The notes under the pieces: generated by a model
The model's database searches: none
What the model saw: the letters and a program-made list of their open reading frames with translations, nothing else
Told to the model about the DNA's origin: nothing
Made by a program: the position numbers and the translations under genes
DNA from: Bilabrum cf. latius
Lineage: Eukaryota
Direction: 5' to 3'
Assembly (NCBI GenBank): GCA_965178125.1
Contig: OZ237744.1
Location: 1,240,001-1,304,000, forward strand
DNA length: 64,000 nt
Shown: positions 24,198 to 52,448 of the stretch, piece by piece
Numbering within the stretch: the stretch's first letter is position 1
Layout: each line of letters opens with the position of its first letter

Positions 24198-25850
24198 ATG
24201 CGTGCTACCAGGTTACTGAGATCGGTGGGTAGGACTCTACGGGTGGATCCATTCTTGCGACCCAGACTGAGCACTTTCCGGCCTTATTAGTGGAGTGGTA
24301 GTAAATGTGCGCAAAATATGTCTGTGCTCGTGTCTACAGATGACGTGGACTCATCAGAGGGAGTGCAGCACTCGCAGTTCTACCAGAGGATATCATCGGG
24401 CAGTCACGTCTTCTTCGCCGACGAACCAGTGTCGTTGGGTGGTGCGGATGAAGCCCCGTCTCCGTACGACATGTTGCTTGGATCTTTGGGGGCGTGCACT
24501 TCAATCACGCTGCAAATGTACGCCAAACGGAAGGGCTTGCCATTGGAGGGCGTGGAAGTAGACCTAGACCATAGCAAAGTGTACAAGGCAGATTGTGAAG
24601 ACTGCGGCAAGCTGTCCGATGATAGTACCACAAAAGGCAGGAAGGGGCCGATGATTGACAGAATCGAGCGCAAGATCCGGCTGATTGGAGATGACCTCAC
24701 AGCAGCTGACAGAAAGAGACTGCTGCAGATCGCCAACGCCTGCCCCGTGCACAAGACCCTGGTGGCAGGGGCAGCCGTCGTAACAACTGAAAATACTGAG
24801 GCCGCCTCTGCCTCCAAGAGCGGGGGCAATCACCCGCTGCGGCAGGCCGTAGTGTCCGAATCTCACACGACGGCGGGCCACCATCTTGTCCCCGACGACC
24901 CGGACTCGATCGTGGTTCGGAGGGCTCTTCCCCAGCGTGAGATCCGATCGTGCGGCCCATTCGTGTTCCTCGACCACTTCGGGCCCGTGGACCTGGATAG
25001 GCAGGCGCCGGTCGACGTGGGCCCGCACCCGCACATTGGGCTGTGCACGCTGACGTACCTCTACTCGGGGGCCATCCTGCACAGGGACTCCACGGGGGCG
25101 CAGCAGCCCATCTTGCCAGGGGCGGCCAACTGGATGGTGGCGGGCCGCGGCGTGGTGCACAGCGAGCGGGGCGAGGAGGCGGCTCACCTCGTGGAGCAGG
25201 GGCCTGACGGGCGCCGCACCGCCCACGGTCTGCAGCTGTGGGTGGCACTCCCCAGGGAACAAGAGGACGTGGAGCCCTCCTTCCACCACGTGGCCAAAGA
25301 GGACCTCCCGGTCATCGCCTGCGATGCAGAGTCTCGGTCAGGCGCCCCCGCGGCTGGGAGCGAGGGAACAGTGGCCCGGTTGGTGGCCGGGGAGGCAATG
25401 GGGGTGCGCTCCCCGGTGCCCGTGCACTCGCCCATGTTCCTCGTGGACCTGCAGCTGCCCAGCAGCGGGTGGTTCCGGTTTGAGCTGCCGGCCGGCCAGG
25501 AGGCGGCCGTGTATGTAGCCAAGGGCGCGGTGCAGGTGGGGGGCGAGCGGGCGCAGGCAGCCACCGGGGACATCCTGGTGATGCGGGCGCCGGAGGATGG
25601 CAAGGGTGAGGAGGAGGCCACCCAGGTGCAGATCAGGTCGCCGGGCCCCGCCCGGGTGGCTATCTTGGGCGGTGCTGCGCTGCCGGAGCCGAGGTCTATG
25701 ATGTGGAATTTCGTCTCGGCCAGCAAGGAGAAGGTTCAGCGGGCGGCCCAGGCCTGGGAGGAGGGTGACGAGTCGCAGTTTCCGCAGGTGCCCGGGGAGG
25801 AAGGGCAGCCCAGGCTCATGATGAAGAAGCTCGCCGGTGGGAGGAAGTGA
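24198..25850 (+). CDS. OsmC/YhfA-family domain fused to a pirin (bicupin), with putative mitochondrial presequence
   Basis: OsmC-like ADEPVSLGG...PSPYDMLLGSLGACTSITLQMYA...IANACPVHKTL; pirin GPFVFLDHFGP, HPHIGL, WMVAGRGVVHSE, GLQLWVALP. ATG 24198 gives Arg-rich MRATRLLRSVGRTLR..., in frame via TAG 24288. Confidence 0.88.
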
Positions 25851-31212: not shown

Positions 31213-34200
31213 TCACACCCCGTCCCCGTCATCCGCCAGCATCTCGCTGACGTACGCGATGTCCTCCGTGGGGTGCCTGTAGAGCCCCTGCTTGAGCCTC
31301 TTCTGGTCCAGGAAGTGCCCCATGAGCCCGATGGACCTCCCCAGCACGAAGAGCCCGTTCAGGCACCCGTTGGAGATCACCTCGTCGGCCTCCTCCTTGG
31401 AGAAAGCCCCGCAGCACCGCATGAGGTCCACGAAGCACACCGCGATGCACCCGTCCACGTTGAGGATGAGGTTGGGCTTCTTCTTCGTGGTCTTCTCCTC
31501 CACATGCAGCGCGAAATCGAGCACGGGGCACTCGGGGAAGTGCTCCTGCGCGTACTCCTTCACGATCTCCACCCTCTTGTCGGGGTTGTGGATGCTCTTG
31601 ACCTTGTGCCCGATGCCCATGATCAGCTTGTGCTGCTTGCGCATCTCCGAGACGAACCCGCCCGGAGTCAGGCCCCGGTCGTACGCCTGGCTGAACTGCT
31701 TGGCTGCCCCGTCCAAGGCTCCACCGAACCTGGGCCCGATGGTCAGCAGCCCAGATGCCAGGGAAGAGATGAGATCCTTGCCCGCGCGAGCCGCCACGAT
31801 GGTGTTGTGGGCCCCCGCCACCGCGGGCCCGTGGTCGGCCGTGACCATGAGCACCATCTCGATGAACTTGGTGGCATACGGGGGCAGCCTCCTCTTGAAC
31901 CAGAGCAGCGACAGCACGCCCCCGATGCCCAGGTCCTCCTTGAACACGTCCGAAATCTTCATGCCGGCGTACTTGAGCTCCTCGCCGCGCTCGTCGCTGA
32001 TCGTAGACACGAAGGCGGCCGGCTTGCGGATCAGCCCGAGCTGCTTGGCCCAGTGGTAGTCCATGGGCAGCTGCGGGGGCGTGATCTCGGGCCCCTCCAC
32101 CACCGTGCCGTCCGCCACCAGGGACTGGAACGTGTCCCCGATCTTCACGGCGAAGTCGTTGAAGTTCTCGGGCACCACCGCGCCCGCCTTGCGGAGGGCC
32201 TCGTTCTTGGCGTCTGCCGTCTGGGCGGCCGAGCCAGCGAGGGCGCCTGCGTGCCCGAACTGCACCTCGAAGGGGAAGATCTTGGCGCAGGTGCCGATGC
32301 ACCACGCGATCACGGGCTTGGTGATGCGACCCTCCTCGATGGCCTTGGCCACCGCGTACTCGTCCGTGCCGCCCACCTCGCCCAGCAACACCATCATCTT
32401 GCAGTTGGGGTTGCGCTGGTACCGCATGAGGTGGTCGATGAACCTGCTGCCGGGGTACCTGTCTCCTCCGATGGCAACGCCCTCGCACACGCCGTCGGCG
32501 TGCTTGGCCATGATGTTGTTGAGCTCGTTGCTCATGCCTCCGCTCTTGCTCACGTAGCACACGCTGCCAGGGCGGTACAGCTTGGACGCCACGATGTTGT
32601 CGATCATGCCACCAGTGTTGCCGATCTTGAAGCAGCCGGGCTTGATGCCGCCCACAGTGGCCGGTCCGATCACCGACACGCCCTTGTCGTCGGCTGCCTG
32701 GATCAGCTCGCGCGAGTAGTGCTCGGGCACGCCCTCGGCGATGACTGCCAACGTCCGCAGCTGGGGGTATTGCAGCGCCTCCATGGAGACCTTGTGCGCT
32801 GACCGGAGGGACGCGAAGTTCACCAGCACGTCCACCTCGGGGTGCTTGGCGCACGCGTCCCCGATGTCCCTGTACACGGGAATCATCACCTGCTCCTGGC
32901 CCCAGTAGAACTGCTGCATGTGCTGGCCCCCGAACGGGTACAGGATGGCGGCCACGGAGGGGGTCTCTCGCCTGCACAGAAAGTCGAAGTCAAGCATGCC
33001 CTGCACGGCCCGCAGCTGCATCCCGTACACGAAGGCCCGGGTCTTGCGGCTGAACAGGTCCCACGGGCCGCTCACCGTCCGTCTCTCCAGCTCCTCCGCA
33101 GACCGCTCGTCTCCGAGCGCCTCGGCACCCTCGGAACCGGCCGCACCCGAGCCCGCCGCGGCCGCTGCGTCGTCCCCACTCGATGGCTGCCTCTCCATGT
33201 CGGCCCGCTCGGCGGACCCCAGAGACAGCGCCGATCCCACGCGGGGCACGCCCCCCGCCGAGGGCCCCGCGATGGCCGCGCACGCCTTGCTGAAGTCCTC
33301 CGCCGTGCCTTCTTTGAGTTCGTCCAGCGCCTTGGGCACGATGGCCGTGATGTGCGTCTCGGGCCCCCGCACGTTGACAGGGACGCCCAGAGTGCGGCCC
33401 AGCTCCCGCATGAGCCGCAGCCCCTCCACGTAGTTGGGGCCTCCGCGGCGCACCCAGATGCTGACCCGGTGCGCGCGCAGCTGCGCCGCGAACCCCCTGA
33501 GGGCCCTCATGATCCCGCGGAATGTCTTGGCCACGTCGGTGAAGTTCGCGATGCCCCCTCCCACGATGAGCACCTTCCCCGCCATGCCGCCCTCCTTGAG
33601 CCGCTCCGTGCCCGGGCGGGTCATCAGCGACAGCACCGTCTTGGCGTACTCGAAGGTGAGCGCCTCGGAGGGAGCGCCAGAGTACTCGCCGTAGTTGGCC
33701 AGCTCCTTGCCGAAGCCAAGGTCGCTGATCGTGTCGGCGTATACAACGGAGGCACCCCCGCCCGCCACCATGGTCCACACCCGGCCCGTGGGGTTGAGCA
33801 CCGTCAGCTTCAAAGAAGACCCCGTCTTGGCGTCCAGGTCTTTGATGTACTGCTCCTCGGGGAGCGGGGGCTTCCCGAAGGACTGGGGGAACGTCAGGTG
33901 GCGCACGCGCATGCCGGCGCCTGCACCGGCACCGGCGCCTGCATCGCCCCCCGCGCCGCTCGCCGCCCCGCCGGCCGGTTGCTCTGGCGCGGGCAAGTGC
34001 TCTGCCCACTAATCCCCGCACACGAACTCGGCGGCCTCGTCAATTTTGGCTGCCATGTCCAGAGGCACCGCCCTGCAGGAGCGAGCATCCCCCTCCCCCT
34101 CCACCAGCAGCACCACCGGGTTGATCTCAAGGTACACAAAGTGCAGCGCGCGGTACAGCTTGAACAGCGCCGCCGTGAACTCGGCGGCTGCGGCCTTCCG

Positions 34201-35278
34201 CACGGGGTCCTTCAGGTCCTGCAGGAGGCCCTCGGCGAGTGTCCCTGCGTCCACATCGACCCCCACGGGCACGTGCATGCGGCGGGCCTTGCTGTCGACA
34301 TCGCCGACATCCACGCCACCCTGCGAGAAAACAGATTGGATGCGAGAGATGGCACGACACTTCAATCTAGTTGGGAATGGGAGCATGTCGGCGGATAGTT
34401 CGGCCGAGAAGCTGCCAGCGGTTGCAGTTGCACTTCCCAAGGAGGCGCAGGCCCGCGCCTGCACCTCCCCTCGTTGCGGCCACACACTGCCGCAGAGACA
34501 CAGGAGAAATGCCACAGTGTCAGGAAAGGAACTTTAGGGATACCACACAGGCATATAGCTCAGCATTGCACGCCATTCAAAGCAACAGGGTGCAGAACAC
34601 CGGCCGATAGTACGGCCGGGGCGGGGAAACAAATTTCCGCTCGGATGACGGAGAGGTAGGCACCCCGGTCCCGCGATTCAAGCTTGTGATGCGTAATTTA
34701 CGCAGTCTAAAGGACAGACAAACCTAACACAAACTGTCTGGTGGCATTTGTTACGACCGAATCACCAGGTTATACCCGAGATGCGGTCTCCGAAATCCAG
34801 TTGCCAACTCAACATGAGATCTTGATGGATTGACCTGTCTTACCTCGTGATGGAACAGAATCTCTTCGCCACTGCGATCAGATTGAATGCAGAGATATAC
34901 TTCATCTTCCTGCTTGTGCGGAACAAACTCCTCGACGAGGAAAGTGTTCAACTTGCCTGTCACGGATTCGACAGTGACATCTTTGTCCGCTCGCTCGGCG
35001 GTCCATGCCTTGGCATCGTCCCATGTAGCATTCAACAAAAGCAGACCGCCTTTTCCGCGACGCTTGATGAGCTGGTCAGGCTTCGCGACCAGCTTGACGC
35101 CATCCTCGAGCAGCCAAGGATTTGCCGCAACGACCGCATCAAAGTCGATGCCGCCTTTGCCATCAGATTTCACCTGCGCGAACCGCTTCGGCAATGTAAT
35201 CTTCCCATCCGAATATTCAGAAAGATGCTGGTGCAGGATTCTCTTTCCATCAACCTCGCGAATAGCACGCTCGGCCAT
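31213..35278 (-). CDS. ACLY: ATP-citrate lyase, single-chain (fused) type
   Basis: [73 protein letters not shown]. Intron 34321-34843; one TAG at 34009; ends TGA. Confidence 0.96.
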
Positions 35279-35376: not shown

Positions 35377-38300
35377 TCACAGCCTGAGTCTCTCCATTAT
35401 GGCCTCAGCCCTATCAAGGACTGACAGAGGCACACCAGCCTGCGCTGCCACTGCCAGCCCGTGAGAGGAGGGAGCCACGCCGGGCTCCACGCGGTAGGTC
35501 AGCCGCAAGCCACGCCTTGCCGCCAGCCGCCAGGAGGCCATCGTCGCTGTTCCCTGGTCCCCACCGTGCCCCTCCTCTATGCTTCCCTCACCCGCTTCCC
35601 CCTCCTCCTCCTCATCTACTTCCTCCTCCTCGTCCTCGTGGACGCCCATCTGGACGCAACGGATCGGATTCAACGCCAGCCTTTGAGTTGCGCAACCATG
35701 CGTTGCACCCGACACGCCCAGACCGACCAGCCTCCGTGGACCGGCCAGAGGCTCTGATCCTGGGGTCTCATCGCTCAATTCGCCGTCAGCTTGAACCCAG
35801 CTCACCGCATCTGCTGGGACCGAAGAGGATGACCAGCCCAGCCCGTCTGCACCATCTTGCGGTGCACCCACACCAACGCTTGCCATCGAACGCGAGCCGC
35901 CGCCCATGGGCCCCACCACGCCCATGGGCCCCAGCTCATGGAAGTGCGTGGCGAAGAGGAGCCTGGCCCTCGCACGCCCGCACAGGTGCTCCAGCGTTGC
36001 ACTCGCGATCGCCAGCCCCTCCCTCGCCGCTGTTCCCCGACCCAGCTCGTCCACCACCACCAGAGACCTCGGGCCCGCCCCCCTCAGGATACCGGCCGCC
36101 TCGGACATCTCCACCATGAAGGTAGACAGGTCCCGCGCCACATCGTCCCCCGCCCCCACCCGGGTGTACAGCCGGTCCACCACCCCCACCACGGCGGCAT
36201 CGGCGGGCACGAAGCTACCGGTCTGTGCGAGCACGACGGCCTGCGCTACTGCCCGGAGGACCGTGCTCTTGCCTCCCATGTTCGGGCCTGTCAGCAACCA
36301 GGCCCGGCCTCCGTCGTACGGGGCCAGCGGCACGCTCGAGCCAATCCCCTCGACGCCCTCATCTTCATCGTCGTGGGTCAGTGTGACGAGTCCAGCCAGC
36401 GCGGCATCGTTTGCCACGAAGGACCGCAGGGCGGCGGGATGCCCAGCCCCAGCCCAGCCCCCCTCGCCGTCCCCATCGTCCTCCTCCCCATCCTCCCCGA
36501 GCCCCCCGTCTGCACCAGCCCGCCCACCACCCCCAGCGTCCTGACTCTCCCAGCCCGCCCCCCAGCCCATAGTCAGGGCCTGCTCCACAACCACGTGCCT
36601 CAGTCCCTGCAGGTACAGAGCAGTACCTAGATCTTCCCAGCCCTCTACCTGCCGCCCTGCCTCTGGTCGGTCGTCACAAGCACTGTCCTCATTGCCATCG
36701 CGCGACGGTGCAAGCGCAGGAACCGGCAGCTGCACGCGCCTGCCAGCCTCCCCCCTGTCCACCACCACAGGGCGACGCAGGCCTAGCCGAGCCGCCGCGT
36801 CTGCCAGCCCCGCGCTCACGTCCACCACGGCACAGGCCTTGCACATGGCCATGATGGCAGGGGCCGCCTCCCGCACCCGCTCGCACAGGTCGTCGAACAG
36901 CGTCCCCTCCAGCGCGGCGGCGCGGTGGGCAGCGTCCGCGACCCTCCTGTCCAGCTCCTGCAGCGCGGGAGCCTTGAACCGCACCACTGTCTTGAGGGTG
37001 CGTGCCCAGGATAGGGACAGATTGTCGTCGTCCTGTTTCGATTCCGAGTCCTTGGCAGCACCGCTGGCCGCCACCGCCTCGGCGAACCGCTGCGGCACCT
37101 CTGCCACGAACCCCAGGTCCGCTGTCCTCCGGATCTTCAGCTGGGGCACACCTGTGCGCTCTCGCAGCCTGTCCTGCGCTTGCAGCACGGCACCGTGCGC
37201 CCCGTCCCTGAGCCCCCTTGCTTCGTCCAAGGCCCTGCAGTACCCCGTCCGGAAGAACCCCTCGGTGCCCTAGTCCAGTCCGTCCGCTTCCCCCTCGAGG
37301 CCCGCAGTGCCGGCAGCGCCGGCTCCCGCGCTCCTCGCCTTGCCGGCCTGCTCGATCCGCGCGTTCGTGCGACCCACAGGCACGGTAAGCGCTGAGGCAG
37401 CCTTGGCACCCGACCGCACCCTCCTGCCAGCTGCGCCGATGCCTGCAGCAGCGGCCGCGCTTGTGGTGGGACTCGGCACCAGGGCGGCCACAAGGTGGCA
37501 GTGCATGTCAGCGAGTGCTTGCAGATGGTGCCCCGGGGTAGAACCAGGCATTGGTGCGGCCGCATCCGCTGTTGTGCCCTCCTCTGTGTCAACGCAGGCC
37601 ACGGGAGGCTGCACGAAGCCACGGTCCACCAGCGGCCAGGCCAGGACGTCGGCTGCCTCTTTCAGCACGGCTGGCAAGCAACGGCGGGCGGACCTGCTGT
37701 GTCCAGACCCCAGCCCCTCCTGTTCTTTAGACCCAAGCTCGCCCCATCGCTACGCCTCCCACACATCGAACTCCCGCGCGGACAGCTGCGTGGACCTGCG
37801 CGCCTCGGCAGGGTCCAGGTCGCCAGCAAACAGGACCGTCTGCATGACTGGATGTCTCGCTCTGCTTGCTTCCCCCCCAGCACCAGCACCAACCTCGCCT
37901 TGCTCCATCAACGTCTTGCTGCCACCAGCTGCCCCACTCGCATCCCTAGGATGCTTGCTCACTGCCGCCGCCCATCGCACCCACGCAGCAGGCACGTCAG
38001 CGTCTCCCCCATACACCCCCGGGTCACCCGGTAGCAGCTTCTCCGCCCTCCCACGCAGCGCATCCACCAGCCCCTGTTCGTCCTCCTGCGACAACCTATC
38101 CTGCCCCTGCCTCTACTCCTGCTCCTCGCCAGCGAGAAGCACCTGCCGCTGGCTGGGCGCCTATCCGCGACCGAAGCGCATCCAGTCCCCACTGGGCTCC
38201 CCCTCCACGCCTTCGGCCAAGCCGACCCCTACGGCCCCCCACTCAGCCTGCGCGGCCTGCAGCATCAGGCCCAGCCTCCGCATGCCCAGCAGCCCGTCCC

Positions 38301-40248
38301 TCAGCGTGGCCAGGTCTCGGGGGGCGGCCCTGGACTTGCCCAGGCACAGCCGCTGGGTGCACCGCTCCACGTCTCCGATCTGCGATAGGACGGATCGGAC
38401 TGCCTGGCGGAGTGCTTGTTCCCTGGAGAACAACTCCACGGCGTCCAGGCGTGCACGGGCGGGGCCAGCGGCGGCGAGTGGGGCGGCCAGTCGCGCGTCC
38501 AGCATGCGGGAGCCCCCCGGGGTCTTGCAGCGGTCTATGGCATGCAGCAAGCAGCCCTTGCCTCGCCGGGGGCCCACCGCGGGTCTATGCAGCTCCAGGG
38601 CCCTAGCTGTGGGGGCGTCCATGAGCAGCACCGGGGGCCTGCGAGGCACTGCAAGGCCACCAGGATGCTGGCCAGAGGACGAGGAGGCTGCCTGCTTGGC
38701 ATTGGGCCAAGGCCTGCCACCGTGCTGGGAGCCCGGGCCAGCTGATCGACCGTCCCTGGGCTCCCCCGTGCCTGCCTCCTCGCCCTCATCCCTGGCATCC
38801 TTCCCCTCCAGGTCCAGCACTGCGGGGGGCGGGAAGCGGAGCACGGGGGCATGTGCCCTGGCTCGCAGTGCAACAGAGGGCATGGAGGCAGGGGCGGGCA
38901 CTGCCAGCTGGCTGTCCTGTGTCCACTGCCCTGCCGTCTGCGTCCACAGCACGTATCGCAGCGCCGATGCGGCGGCTTCCCTCTGCTCGCCGCTGAGCTC
39001 CCCCCACCACTCATAGCCACGAGAAGAATCCAGCCCTTGACCTGTCCCGGCAGTGCTCTCGGCTACCCCTTCCCGCTGGTCCTGCTCCTCCACCAGTACC
39101 CTCACCTCGGGAGGAGGAGGAGGGGAAAGGGCGAGCATCCCGCCTTGCCCGCAAGCCAGTGCACCCGCGCTCTCGTCCAGCCCGAGCATATCTTCATCTT
39201 CAGGTCCAATCTCGCCCATGGACGAGCCGTGGTGTTCCACCCCCTGCACTGTGGTCACGCAGCACCCCTCAAGCCCAGGAGCTGTCCCCGCACGCAACGC
39301 CCGTAGTAGATCGGTCACCTCCTTGGCAGCAGCGGGAGGGGCCGGCGTGCCTCTGGGACGGCGTTGCGGGCTGGGGGGAGCAAGCAAACCGTCTGCACCG
39401 GCATGTGGTTCGTCCGGCGGCCTCCACTCCGCGACTTCCCTTGGCAGCAGCACCTCCGCCGGAGGATACCTCGCCAGCGCGCCAAGGGCCTCGGGCAGCG
39501 GGCAGGAAGACACCATGAACCCACCCGTGGACACGTCTACCCAGCACAGCCCCGCACGCACACCGGACCCAACAGATGACGGGCTCTCTGCAGCACTGCC
39601 AGCCGCTCCTACTCCGGGAGCGAGACAGGCCATGGTTAGCTCCGCGGGATCCACCCAGATCGAAGCCAGGTAGTTGTGCTACCGAGGCCGCAAGATGGCA
39701 TCATCGGTTGCAGTTCCAGGGGTTATGATTCGGGTAAGCTGCCTTTGAACCAGCTATTGCGTCGCGGACTTGCGTCCCTTGCTAGGCTTTGGCTGGCCAG
39801 CGGAGCTTTGCGCAGGTATCTGCTCGCAAATGGCAACTTTCAGGCCTGCTTTCAAAAGCTTCGCAATGTGCCGATCTGCAGAATGCATAGGCATACCGCA
39901 CATAGGAATAGGAGTCCCAAGGTGCTTGCCGCGTTGTGTGAGCGCTATTCCAAGCACCGGAGCTGCTGTCTTCGCATCCTAAAAGAAAATTTCAAAGAAT
40001 TCACCCATCTAGAAGAACAAGATATGCCCTCGGAGTCGCGGGTTACTTCTCAACTGCACATACTACTTCATCATTGGGGTAGGGGGAACGGTTGAGCTGA
40101 GGAAACGGCGGTGATGCACCGAGCACCTCGTGTCCACCCTTGCATGGCGTCGAGCAGCAAGCGCCCAGCGACGAAGCAGGTGCACATTCGTGGGTGCTCG
40201 AAGGAACGGACGACATATCCGCCCCCAAGCCTACCGCACGCGATTCAT
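35377..40248 (-). CDS. MSH1: Mitochondrion-targeted MutS1/MSH1-type mismatch repair ATPase (no GIY-YIG domain seen)
   Basis: One frame with 10 TAGs (40231, 40063, 40009, 39979, 39754, 39679, 38161, 38113, 37750, 37270). [70 protein letters not shown]. Arg-rich presequence. Confidence 0.88.
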
Positions 40249-40524
40249 GCGGAGGGTGCGAGCGATTGGGGCGTGGTTGTCCTCACTTTTGTGGCGGTTC
40301 AAGACCCTGATGATGAGTGCCACCACTCGCACACCACAGCACAGTGCATCGTGGAAAGGCTGGGTGGTCCAGTGCAGTGAGTACAGACAATGTGGACATA
40401 TCAACACGAAAAGACTGGCCTCACACATCACCAACCTGTTGCCCTCGCCCTTTGGGGGGCCGCTCTTCCACACATGCGCCACAGGCCTTAACACCACTCC
40501 CGCTGGCACCCGCAGCCCGGGAGT

Positions 40525-49631: not shown

Positions 49632-52448
49632 ATGGATGATTCTACAGCATCTGCAACATCTGTGGAGATTCCAAGCACAAAGACGTATCGACTTGTGTTA
49701 GAACAGCTGTGGCGCCTGTACTTCGGAGATGTGGGTCCTTTCAACCTCCTTGATTCGCGGCTGGGCCTTGCAATGGAATTCGTGGGTATGTTTCGGGGTC
49801 CCTATGGGGCAACCCTGCTCGGCGCATCGGATATAGTTCACGACGAGGTGATAAACCTGAATTACTCCGACCTGTTGTAGGCCAGCGACCTGTCGGATCT
49901 TGATGAGGCCATCCGTGAGTACCCGAGCGACTCGTTTCGGTGCCTCGGCCTCGCCCTCAGCTTTGAGCGAGCGCACAAACTAGCAATTGCCAGCCTTGCC
50001 CGCTAGCACGCACCAATCAGTAGCGAATTAAATTTGGAGCAGCAGGCGGCCGATCGAGAGGGTCGGATAGTTGCCTTGATGGCCCAGCAGTCGCACTCGC
50101 TGGTCAAGGCGCGGGTCGAGGACGTCAAGCCGTACACACCCATCAAGCAGATCCGCAGTGGGCACGTCGGGCAGTTCCTTTCGGTGCGAGGAACTGTGCT
50201 GCGGGTGTCGGGCGTCCGTCCCTTGGTTGTGCGCATGTCCTTCCGGTGCGGCAGCTGCGGGCAGCTGGTGGATTGCGCCTTCCAAGACGGGCAGTACATG
50301 CCCCCTTCCAAGTGCACTGCCACGGACAAGTGCAGGTCCAGAACGTTCATGCCGGAGCGGGCCACCGCCCAGACCATCGACTGGCAGAAGATCAAGCTGC
50401 AGTCCGTGGACGACGACGACCCTGACCCCGGCCGAGTGCCTCGCAGCATCGAGGTGGACCTGACGCACGACCTTGTCGACTCGTGCGTGCCGGGCGACGT
50501 GGTGTCCATCGCGGGCACGGTCAAGAGCGTCAACTCAGAGGTGGCCGCGGGGCGGGGCATGGCTCGCGCACGCAATCTCTTCGTGCTCTACCTGCATGCG
50601 CACAGCGTGGCCTCCAACAAGCTGGCGGTGGGTGGGCTCCTGGAGTCTCGGTCTTTCAGCGAGAGAGACAGGGCGGCCTTCCACAAGATATCCACCCAGC
50701 CTGACCCCTTTGCTCTCGTGGTGGCGTCCATGTGCCCCATGATCTTCGGGCATGCTGCTGTCAAGGCCGGCCTGACGCTCGGGCTGTTCGGGGGATCGTA
50801 GCCCGAGGCTGCCAGGGAACAAGCCGAGGGCGCGATCATGCAGTCTGGCGGCAGCGGTGCCAGCGGGCCGCAGCCCTCTCCGCTCTCTCCGGCGCAGGCG
50901 GGACTGCAAGGTAAGCGGGGAGCGACCGGCGGGGGCGACGGCGCGGGTGGGGGGGCCAAGGAGCAGGCCGTGCGTGCCGCGCTGGAAGCCGCGCGGAGGG
51001 CAGGGGCAGCCCCTCTGTCCCGCGTGCTGCAAGGCGCAGGGTCCTCCACCGCGCGCTACTCACTGTCGGTGCGCGCCGACCCTCACATCCTAGTGGTGGG
51101 GGATCCGGGGCTGGGCAAGAGCCAGATGCTGCGGGCCGTGGCGGCGCTGGCCCCTCGCGGGGTGTACGTGAGCGGCAACACGACTTCCTCGACTGGCCTG
51201 ACGGTGACCATGGCCCGGGACCCGGCCACGAAGGACTTCGGGCTGGAGGCCGGGGCCCTGGTGCTGAGCGACCAGGGCATCTGCTGCATCGACGAGTTCG
51301 ACAAGATGGCCTCGCAGCACGCTGCCCTGCTCGAGGCCATGGAGCAGCAGCGCATATCCGTGGCCAAGGCCGGCATCGTGTGCTCCTTGTCCGCACGCGC
51401 CACGGTACTGGCCGCAGCCAATCCGGCGGGAGGGCACTACGACCGGGCCAAGACCATCATGGAGAACCTGCGGCTGTCGGCCCCTGTACTGAGCAGGTTT
51501 GACCTGGTCTTCATCATGCTGGACGACCCGGACGAAGAGAAGGACAGGCAGCTCTCCAGGCACATCATCGACATACACACGGGGAGGCACTCGGCGCTGG
51601 AGAACGGCGGCCGTGGTGGGGCTGGCAGGCCTGGGGCAGCGTCGGCGGCGGAGCGGCAGAGGCAGCGCGCTGCCCTCGAGCGGCGAGCAGCGGCGGAGCG
51701 GCAGCGGAGACAGGCCATCGCAGCCTCGGTGGCGAGGGCCGAGGATAGGGCCGCCCGCACACAGGCCTCGCAGACGGCGGTGGGGAGCCACGGGGCAGCT
51801 GCTTCGATGCTGCTGGGGGACGGGGAGGGGGAGGGGGCTTCCGAGTCGTTCGAGACCCGGCTTCGGCGGCGGGTGCTGGCGATCGATGACCCGCTGCCGC
51901 ACGCGCTGCTGCGCAAGTACGTGGCTTTCGTGAGGAGGCACTGCCACCCGGTGCTGACTCCCGCGGCGGCTTCGGTGCTGCAGGAGTGCTACATCGGGCT
52001 GCGGCAGCAGTCGGGGCACAACGAGGCCGTGCCCATCACCACGCGCCAGCTCGAGTCGCTGGTCCGTCTATCCCAGGCCCGCGCCCGTGTGGAGATGAGG
52101 GCGAGGGTGAGCAAAGAGGACGCGCAGGACGTGGTGGGGCTCATGAAGCAGTCGCTGCTGGACGCTGCTACCGACGCGATGGGCTTTGTGGACTTTTCCC
52201 GCGCGGGTGGCATGAGCATGGGGGCGCAGGTGAAGGCCTTCGCCAAGGCGCTGGGCAGTGCGTCTGCGAGGAAGGGCTCCTCCGTGTTCAGCAGGGACGA
52301 GCTGGTGCAGCTCATGGAGGACCTGCGGCTGAGGGTGCCGTCCACCTCCGAGTTCCTGGACCGTCTGAACCAGTAGAATTACATCATCAAGAAGGGGCCC
52401 AGGCTCTACCAGGTGCTCGTCTCTAGCTTCGGGGCGGTGAGCACGTGA
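49632..52448 (+). CDS. MCM8: DNA helicase MCM8
   Basis: Zn-finger FRCGSCG, DWQKIKLQ, GRVPRSIEV, Walker A GDPGLGKSQ, IDEFDKM, SRFD, ITTRQLESLVRL, C-terminal LNQ*NYIIKKGPRLYQ. TAGs 49878, 50004, 50799, 52374; TGA 52446. Confidence 0.93.

Follow-up and report, generated by a model that had tools for sequence, protein, structure and literature searches.

The window, a 64,000-nucleotide stretch of a GC-rich eukaryotic assembly with few introns (48.6 Mb in 111 contigs), very probably comes from an organism whose nuclear code reads UAG as glutamine and keeps UGA as the major and UAA as a minor stop codon, with its MutS gene being an ordinary, intact MutS1/MSH1 gene under that code. At the DNA level TAG behaves as a minor glutamine codon throughout the genome. 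It would be read by a CUA-anticodon tRNA that cytosolic GlnRS would charge with glutamine, and eRF1 would have lost its affinity for UAG. Within the window, in-frame TAG was found in 8 of the 10 genes tallied. The coordinates of the features are compiled in the table.

Features discussed in the text (positions are those of the window unless a contig is named)
Feature	Position	Strand	Remarks
Window	G000:C10:1240001-1304000		
OsmC-pirin fusion, single frame	24198-25850	plus	one TAG
ATP-citrate lyase gene, single-chain	31213-35273	minus	adjoins MutS gene
TAG of ATP-citrate lyase gene	34009..34011	minus	in frame; unchanged in spliced transcript-like contigs
ATP-citrate lyase intron	34320-34842		GT-AG, 523 bases; seen in three runs
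MutS1/MSH1-like gene	35377..40248	minus	a single 1,623-codon frame with TAG as Gln
Terminal TGA of MutS	35379-35377	minus	
MutS domain V (ATPase), best stretch	35929..36300	minus	residues 1313-1436 of P0001
Four more MutS TAGs	37270..38163	minus	38163, 38115, 37752, 37272; in frame; mostly in low-complexity insertions
MutS TAG	39681-39679	minus	in frame
MutS domain I (mismatch binding)	39700..40080	minus	residues 53-179 of P0001; F-x-E intact
MutS TAG	39756-39754	minus	in frame
MutS TAG	39981-39979	minus	in frame
MutS TAG	40011-40009	minus	in frame
MutS TAG of TPMMK-X-Y	40065-40063	minus	in frame
MutS N-terminal extension	40081..40248	minus	Arg-rich; 13 Arg and 1 acidic residue in 56
TAG in N-terminal extension	40233-40231	minus	in frame
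MCM8 gene	49632..52448	plus	4 in-frame TAG
tRNA gene, anticodon CUA	G000:C23:907607-907679 (L007:1501-1573)	minus	outside the window

TAG serves as a sense codon whose positions follow those of glutamine. The 19 dynein heavy-chain loci that we took from an AAA_6 search of the assembly each form a single long open frame only if TAG is translated, and within the 28 AAA_6 matches there are 20 TAG and no TAA or TGA. Together the 19 frames hold 444 TAG, 3,634 CAG and 649 CAA, the 13 complete dyneins contributing 209 TAG in 61,585 codons. TAG makes up about 9% of the Gln codons in the dyneins and is used more in AT-richer sequence (Spearman correlation of TAG share with GC3 over the 19 frames -0.83). 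When the dynein paralogues are aligned, TAG faces Gln in 33 of 73 columns that are at least 50% conserved (CAG 331/615), in 20 of 32 at a threshold of 70% (CAG 186/273, CAA 19/28) and in 5 of 7 at 90% (CAG 29/38). Comparison of dynein-2 with 120 outside homologues gives Gln opposite TAG at 7/8, 7/14 and 9/24 sites for thresholds of at least 90%, 70% and 50%, respectively, the corresponding values for CAG being 8/13, 11/20 and 14/35. Summed over the 48 well-covered TAG sites of dynein-2, the log-odds score is +9.6 for Gln, with Ser next best at -45.4. In moderately conserved columns TAG often stands opposite Glu, Arg, Ala or Ser, as CAG and CAA do at similar rates. Five of the dynein frames (L084, L088, L090, L094 and L096) exceed 6,500 codons; the others are usually 4,300-5,100 codons long.

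The switch-II glutamine of small GTPases has a catalytic role. In 18 motif matches among 30 small-GTPase loci this residue is encoded by TAG eight times and by CAG and CAA five times each. Of the four TAGs of the MCM8 gene in the window, two (50799 and 52374) align with Gln of the human protein; the residues opposite the other two, at 49878 and 50004, are Glu and Arg. The OsmC-pirin fusion is a further gene of the window with a TAG in its frame.

Genes are terminated by TGA and TAA. At the 33 gene ends that can be verified we find 26 TGA, 7 TAA and no TAG, which corresponds to a binomial probability of 0.007 if the true share of TAG were 15%; rare TAG stops may be compatible with 33 ends. Twenty of these ends come from the small-GTPase loci with a terminal Cys prenylation motif (20/30), which is followed by TGA in 16 and by TAA in 4 cases, while a terminal Cys motif followed by TAG occurs at none of the 30 loci; the other ten have no Cys motif or are exon fragments. 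The remaining 13 are provided by the dyneins that reach the conserved C-terminus (13/19; 10 TGA, 3 TAA), the other six comprising four that run off the fetched DNA, one with an intron-like tail and one with a divergent end. TAG is also present 11 to 21 codons upstream of true stops. Internal TAA or TGA was seen in 3 of 65 Ras matches, and we read these as intron edges, as seen directly for L227 alone. Since TAA ends 7 of the 33 genes and also the eRF1 gene (L001), the code is not the UAR = Gln code (table 6). When TAA alone is read as Gln, the open reading frames of the window become hardly longer.

The preliminary description of this DNA had placed five TAGs in the MutS mismatch-binding domain, several of them on conserved glutamines, and had listed each TAG by the last base of its codon. 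All five are confirmed as in-frame codons on the minus strand and lie inside Pfam MutS_I (E-value 1.3e-31) or just past it. We tabulated the residues that face them in 120 homologues. The TAG of the TPMMK-X-Y motif occupies an invariant position (Gln in 120/120), and it is the one of the five that sits on an invariant Gln, so that 'several' in the description was overstated. The column of TAG 40011 is Arg in 119 of the 120 homologues and in E. coli, P0002 alone having Gln; that of TAG 39981 holds mostly Asp (65) and Glu (42) with Gln in two; and that of TAG 39756 is variable (Ser 55, Gly 34, Ala 27, Gln 0). At TAG 39681 E. coli MutS does have Gln, as the preliminary description stated, but the homologues show Arg 77, Ala 19, Ser 16 and no Gln (0/120). 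With one of five TAGs on an invariant Gln, the local evidence is therefore weaker than first stated, and the five codons on their own are suggestive, not decisive. The reading of TAG as Gln is nonetheless supported, but what proves it is the evidence gathered elsewhere in the genome, not these five codons. The domain is richer in TAG, which accounts for 5 of its 13 Gln-type codons versus 4 of 57 downstream (Fisher p = 0.009). This clustering is best read as an effect of composition, because the GC content of this stretch is lower (52% versus 69% downstream) and the share of TAG drops with GC3.

The MutS frame as a whole contains 10 TAG, 47 CAG and 14 CAA. We infer the start codon at 40248; a further in-frame ATG lies upstream at 40428. 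Pfam detects all of MutS_I, MutS_II, MutS_III, MutS_IV and MutS_V, the whole protein matches the domain V profile with an E-value of 2.8e-58, the F-x-E mismatch-binding motif lines up with that of E. coli MutS, and motifs that we take to be the P-loop and Walker B are visible in the translation. The Arg-rich N-terminal extension is, judging from its composition, probably a mitochondrial presequence, and an extension of comparable length is present in the close homologue P0363. Named matches, in a search confined to proteins of at most 889 residues, are mostly from Alphaproteobacteria at about 40% identity, and the closest homologue is the metagenomic protein P0002 (85% identical). Proteins of the MutS1/MSH1 family recognize mismatches in mitochondrial DNA, and by analogy this is the likely function here. 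The gene fits the mitochondrial MutS1/yeast-type MSH1 group, with targeting and ancestry presumed from its sequence.

MutS1/yeast-type MSH1 of eukaryotes is alphaproteobacterial-like and known in stramenopiles such as oomycetes and Hondaea (PMC12292046). The gene shares with this group, as far as the available part of that paper describes it, the five domains, the presequence-like N-terminal extension and the alphaproteobacterial matches, and differs in its length of 1,623 residues and its long insertions; bicosoecids are absent from the same part of the account. P0002 and P0363, both metagenomic proteins, terminate at the same residue, and their contigs differ in length. The shared end may reflect a TAG of a relative with the same code that was called as a stop, or an intron. 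A metagenome scan for the contig of P0002 returned 80 loci with at most 71% identity, that contig not being among them.

Could MutS instead be a decaying pseudogene, or its TAGs assembly errors? In favour are the size of the protein, close to double that of bacterial MutS, its long low-complexity insertions, and the coverage of the gene by low-depth pieces only. Against this, all five domains are present, and the 1,623 codons of the frame include ten TAGs but neither TAA nor TGA and are free of frameshifts, in agreement with the earlier view that pseudogenization does not fit. The same TAG pattern occurs in essential genes (eRF1, MCM8, dyneins and Rabs). An X1 contig, which possibly derives from the same DNA source, shows 0 differences over the whole stretch, as does an X5 piece over three of the MutS TAGs. 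Decay or misassembly is thus already refuted at the genome level, and we regard it as barely tenable.

The adjoining ATP-citrate lyase gene provides data from transcript-like contigs. Contigs from X6 and X7 (records 17 and 24), two studies other than the likely DNA source whose RNA nature is a software estimate, none of the runs being on file as RNA, connect 34319 with 34843 over the intron and are therefore spliced, and they keep the TAG at 34011-34009 with 0 other letters. These contigs bear on the possibility that the organism uses the standard code and that U-to-C editing of the mRNA turns UAG into CAG. The two codons differ by a single transition and rare variants are lost from contigs, which would leave some room for editing, but the retained TAG in spliced contigs speaks against it and the presence of a CUA tRNA makes editing needless, so that we attach next to no probability to this explanation. 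For MutS itself, X5 pieces have a depth of 2.9-5.8; these may be DNA or pre-mRNA, because an unspliced intron piece in X5 has a similar depth (5.7). TAG/CAG swaps in related strains were looked for in the long pieces and none was seen, all being identical to the window.

The candidate decoder under the UAG = Gln code is the tRNA gene with a CUA anticodon on contig C23. It scores 69.8 bits against RF00005, its anticodon was named by ARAGORN, the frames around it bear TAGs, and a T-run comes after it. It is the one CUA tRNA gene among the matches of two pattern searches, a count to be read with the fact that intron-bearing copies escape such patterns; the CUA pattern had 0 matches in viral contigs. 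A loose T-loop pattern for tRNAs was dropped, its matches being at chance level. A CUA anticodon pairs with UAG but not with UAA, and therefore UAA remains a stop.

Over 68 positions the CUA tRNA is identical to tRNA-Tyr at 47, tRNA-Ser(CGA) at 45, tRNA-Glu(CUC) at 42, tRNA-Gln(CUG) at 41 and tRNA-Gln(UUG) at 39. Unrelated tRNA pairs share 33.8 positions on average (SD 6.0, maximum 51), and because 8 of 498 such pairs reach at least 47/68, the resemblance to tRNA-Tyr, which ranks first among 33 comparisons, is not significant. The comparison included 34 of the 42 distinct ARAGORN calls, the nuclear Trp, Leu and His tRNAs standing outside it. By region, the acceptor stem is Tyr-like (12 of 14 bases, with the C1-G72 pair of eukaryotic tRNA-Tyr), the anticodon stem is one compensatory pair away from tRNA-Tyr, the T-arm is identical to that of tRNA-Ser (17/17), and the D-stem and G73 match tRNA-Gln(UUG). 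Tyr identity depends on A73 and G34 and Ser identity on a long variable arm (PMC9976931), and the CUA tRNA has none of these. With 41 and 39 of 68 positions shared with the two tRNA-Gln and a Tyr-like C1-G72 pair, charging with Gln is not evident from the sequence; the identity table of PMC9976931 gives, in the part available, no eukaryotic Gln set.

The simplest route to a decoder, according to PMC5304391, is a mutant of tRNA-Gln(CUG). As judged by these identities, the CUA tRNA is no recent mutant of tRNA-Gln(CUG) and no near copy of either tRNA-Gln. An origin outside tRNA-Gln is conceivable, if doubtful. Bacterial amber suppressors derived from Trp, Ser, Asn and Lys tRNAs can turn into Gln inserters (PMC9976931). 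We tentatively propose that the decoder arose as a natural amber suppressor, either from tRNA-Tyr (GUA to CUA) or from tRNA-Ser(CGA) with loss of the variable arm. It would then have gained glutamine identity through a change from A73 to G73 together with changes in the D-stem, and would parallel, in nature, the amber suppressors made in the laboratory that GlnRS mischarges.

The mosaic character of this tRNA also raises the possibility that UAG is ambiguous, being read mostly as Gln and sometimes as a stop, or partly as Tyr or Ser through features retained by the decoder. The C1-G72 pair, the 12 of 14 Tyr acceptor-stem bases, the 17/17 Ser T-arm and G73 could be seen in this light, as could the single gene copy among the pattern-search matches and the lack of TAG in some probably highly expressed genes (0 of 27 Gln codons in mtHSP70, 0 of 8 in a kinase). 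However, TAG is found at none of the 33 verifiable ends and does occur shortly before true stops, Tyr never ranks opposite TAG and Ser scores -45, and the A73, G34 and long variable arm of Tyr and Ser identity (PMC9976931) are missing. We therefore consider ambiguous decoding improbable and retain glutamine as the meaning of UAG.

Several peculiarities of other tRNA genes were seen alongside. In both copies of tRNA-Gln(CUG) (L099:1470-1542 and L100; G000:C7) the acceptor stem contains an A-A mismatch, and the copies differ strongly from tRNA-Gln(UUG). The nuclear tRNA-Ile genes (L013, L112) carry the anticodon GAU, which to our knowledge is unusual for eukaryotes, and several tRNAs (Ile, Val, Asn, Lys and Arg) have A instead of T54. 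A near-identical AT-rich 44-base match at G000:C5:289029, C7:1147174 and C9:664975 is not a tRNA and is possibly part of a repeated mobile element.

A GlnRS gene is present in the assembly. Of the two TAGs in the N-domain of the eRF1 gene itself, one faces Gln in every one of the 120 homologues, and the second lies at Leu69 (Leu 113, Gln 5, Asn 2 of 120). The GTS motif, E55 and NIKS are intact. Four substitutions, S60V, K130H, G29A and N30D, the last two resting on an inferred splice site, are each found in 0 of 120 homologues and adjoin the GTS, NIKS and YxCxxxF motifs; the column scan covered exons 3 and 4, and exon 2 was read separately.

The best named match of the dynein-2 protein is from Cafeteria roenbergensis (49%). 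In a FastTree analysis of this one gene with 44 sequences (43 of the 120 matches plus our assembly), the organism groups with Cafeteria and three further sequences with a support of 0.992, on a long branch (0.78). The mitochondrial contig C111 (L045-L048; 38.4 kb, 24% GC) encodes a tRNA-Trp(UCA) and uses UGA for Trp, and bicosoecid mitochondria have tRNA-Trp(UCA) (PMC6723347). From the one-gene tree and the mitochondrial code we infer a bicosoecid-like stramenopile. ARAGORN finds just 10 tRNAs on C111, fewer than in Cafileria, which suggests heavy tRNA import. P0125, the nearest sister in the tree, is a dynein of 4,411 residues whose deposited frame is open, which hints at a relative without frequent TAG and a code change confined to part of the bicosoecids. 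The 18S array of the organism is on C12. A second, different 18S gene (L004, G000:C95:6099-7900) on a 17.9 kb contig, presumably dinoflagellate-like, is probably a contaminant.

Codes that separate UAG from UAA are rare: in the accessible parts of the literature four lineages with UAG = Gln are reported, none of them a stramenopile, and in three of the four the tRNA that decodes UAG is said not to have been found. In Iotanema spirale (PMC5304391) UAG alone is reassigned to Gln and UAA and UGA remain stops, giving a codon table identical to the one described here. It belongs to Fornicata, a different supergroup, and prefers UAA as the main stop in contrast to UGA here (26/33); its eRF1 carries T32G, whereas GTS is intact in our organism, and its CUA tRNA was predicted, whereas a CUA gene is identified here. 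The three ciliates Hartmannula sinica, Trochilia petrani and Protocruzia tuzeti (PMC11687900, PMC10089648) likewise keep UAA as a stop and use UAG as a minor or second Gln codon; PMC10089648 gives, in the part available, TAG counts alone for the ciliate code. They prefer UAA as a stop, unlike the present GC-rich genome with UGA, in neither H. sinica nor T. petrani did the same sources detect a suppressor tRNA, and UAG makes up 18-32% of their Gln codons compared to about 9% in the dyneins here. Many ciliates, ulvophytes, diplomonads, oxymonads and aphelids also read TAG as Gln, under the UAR = Gln code (PMC11687900). By codon use the present code is thus of a known kind, and it differs in lineage, in its GC-rich context with UGA as the main stop and in its identified, atypical decoder.

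The literature that we found, in which subscription journals are thinly covered and supplements were left aside, contains no nuclear stop reassignment in a stramenopile, and no such case appears in the available parts of PMC11412368, PMC13524828, PMC10767852, PMC13768787 and PMC12152300. This may, though less likely than not, be both the first nuclear stop reassignment in stramenopiles and the first case in which the decoder of a UAG-only Gln code is identified; those who deposited the assembly, a recent one, may already be aware of the code. Low GC has been linked to code change in ciliates (PMC10089648, in the part available), and our organism conflicts with this link because its genome is GC-rich with UGA as the main stop. 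As the tRNA, GlnRS and eRF1 genes reside in one contiguous genome, the loss of UAG as a stop with UAA kept becomes directly testable. Under standard-code annotation a large proportion of the genes would be cut short, related metagenomic sequences are probably mis-called, and viruses of this organism would need the same code.
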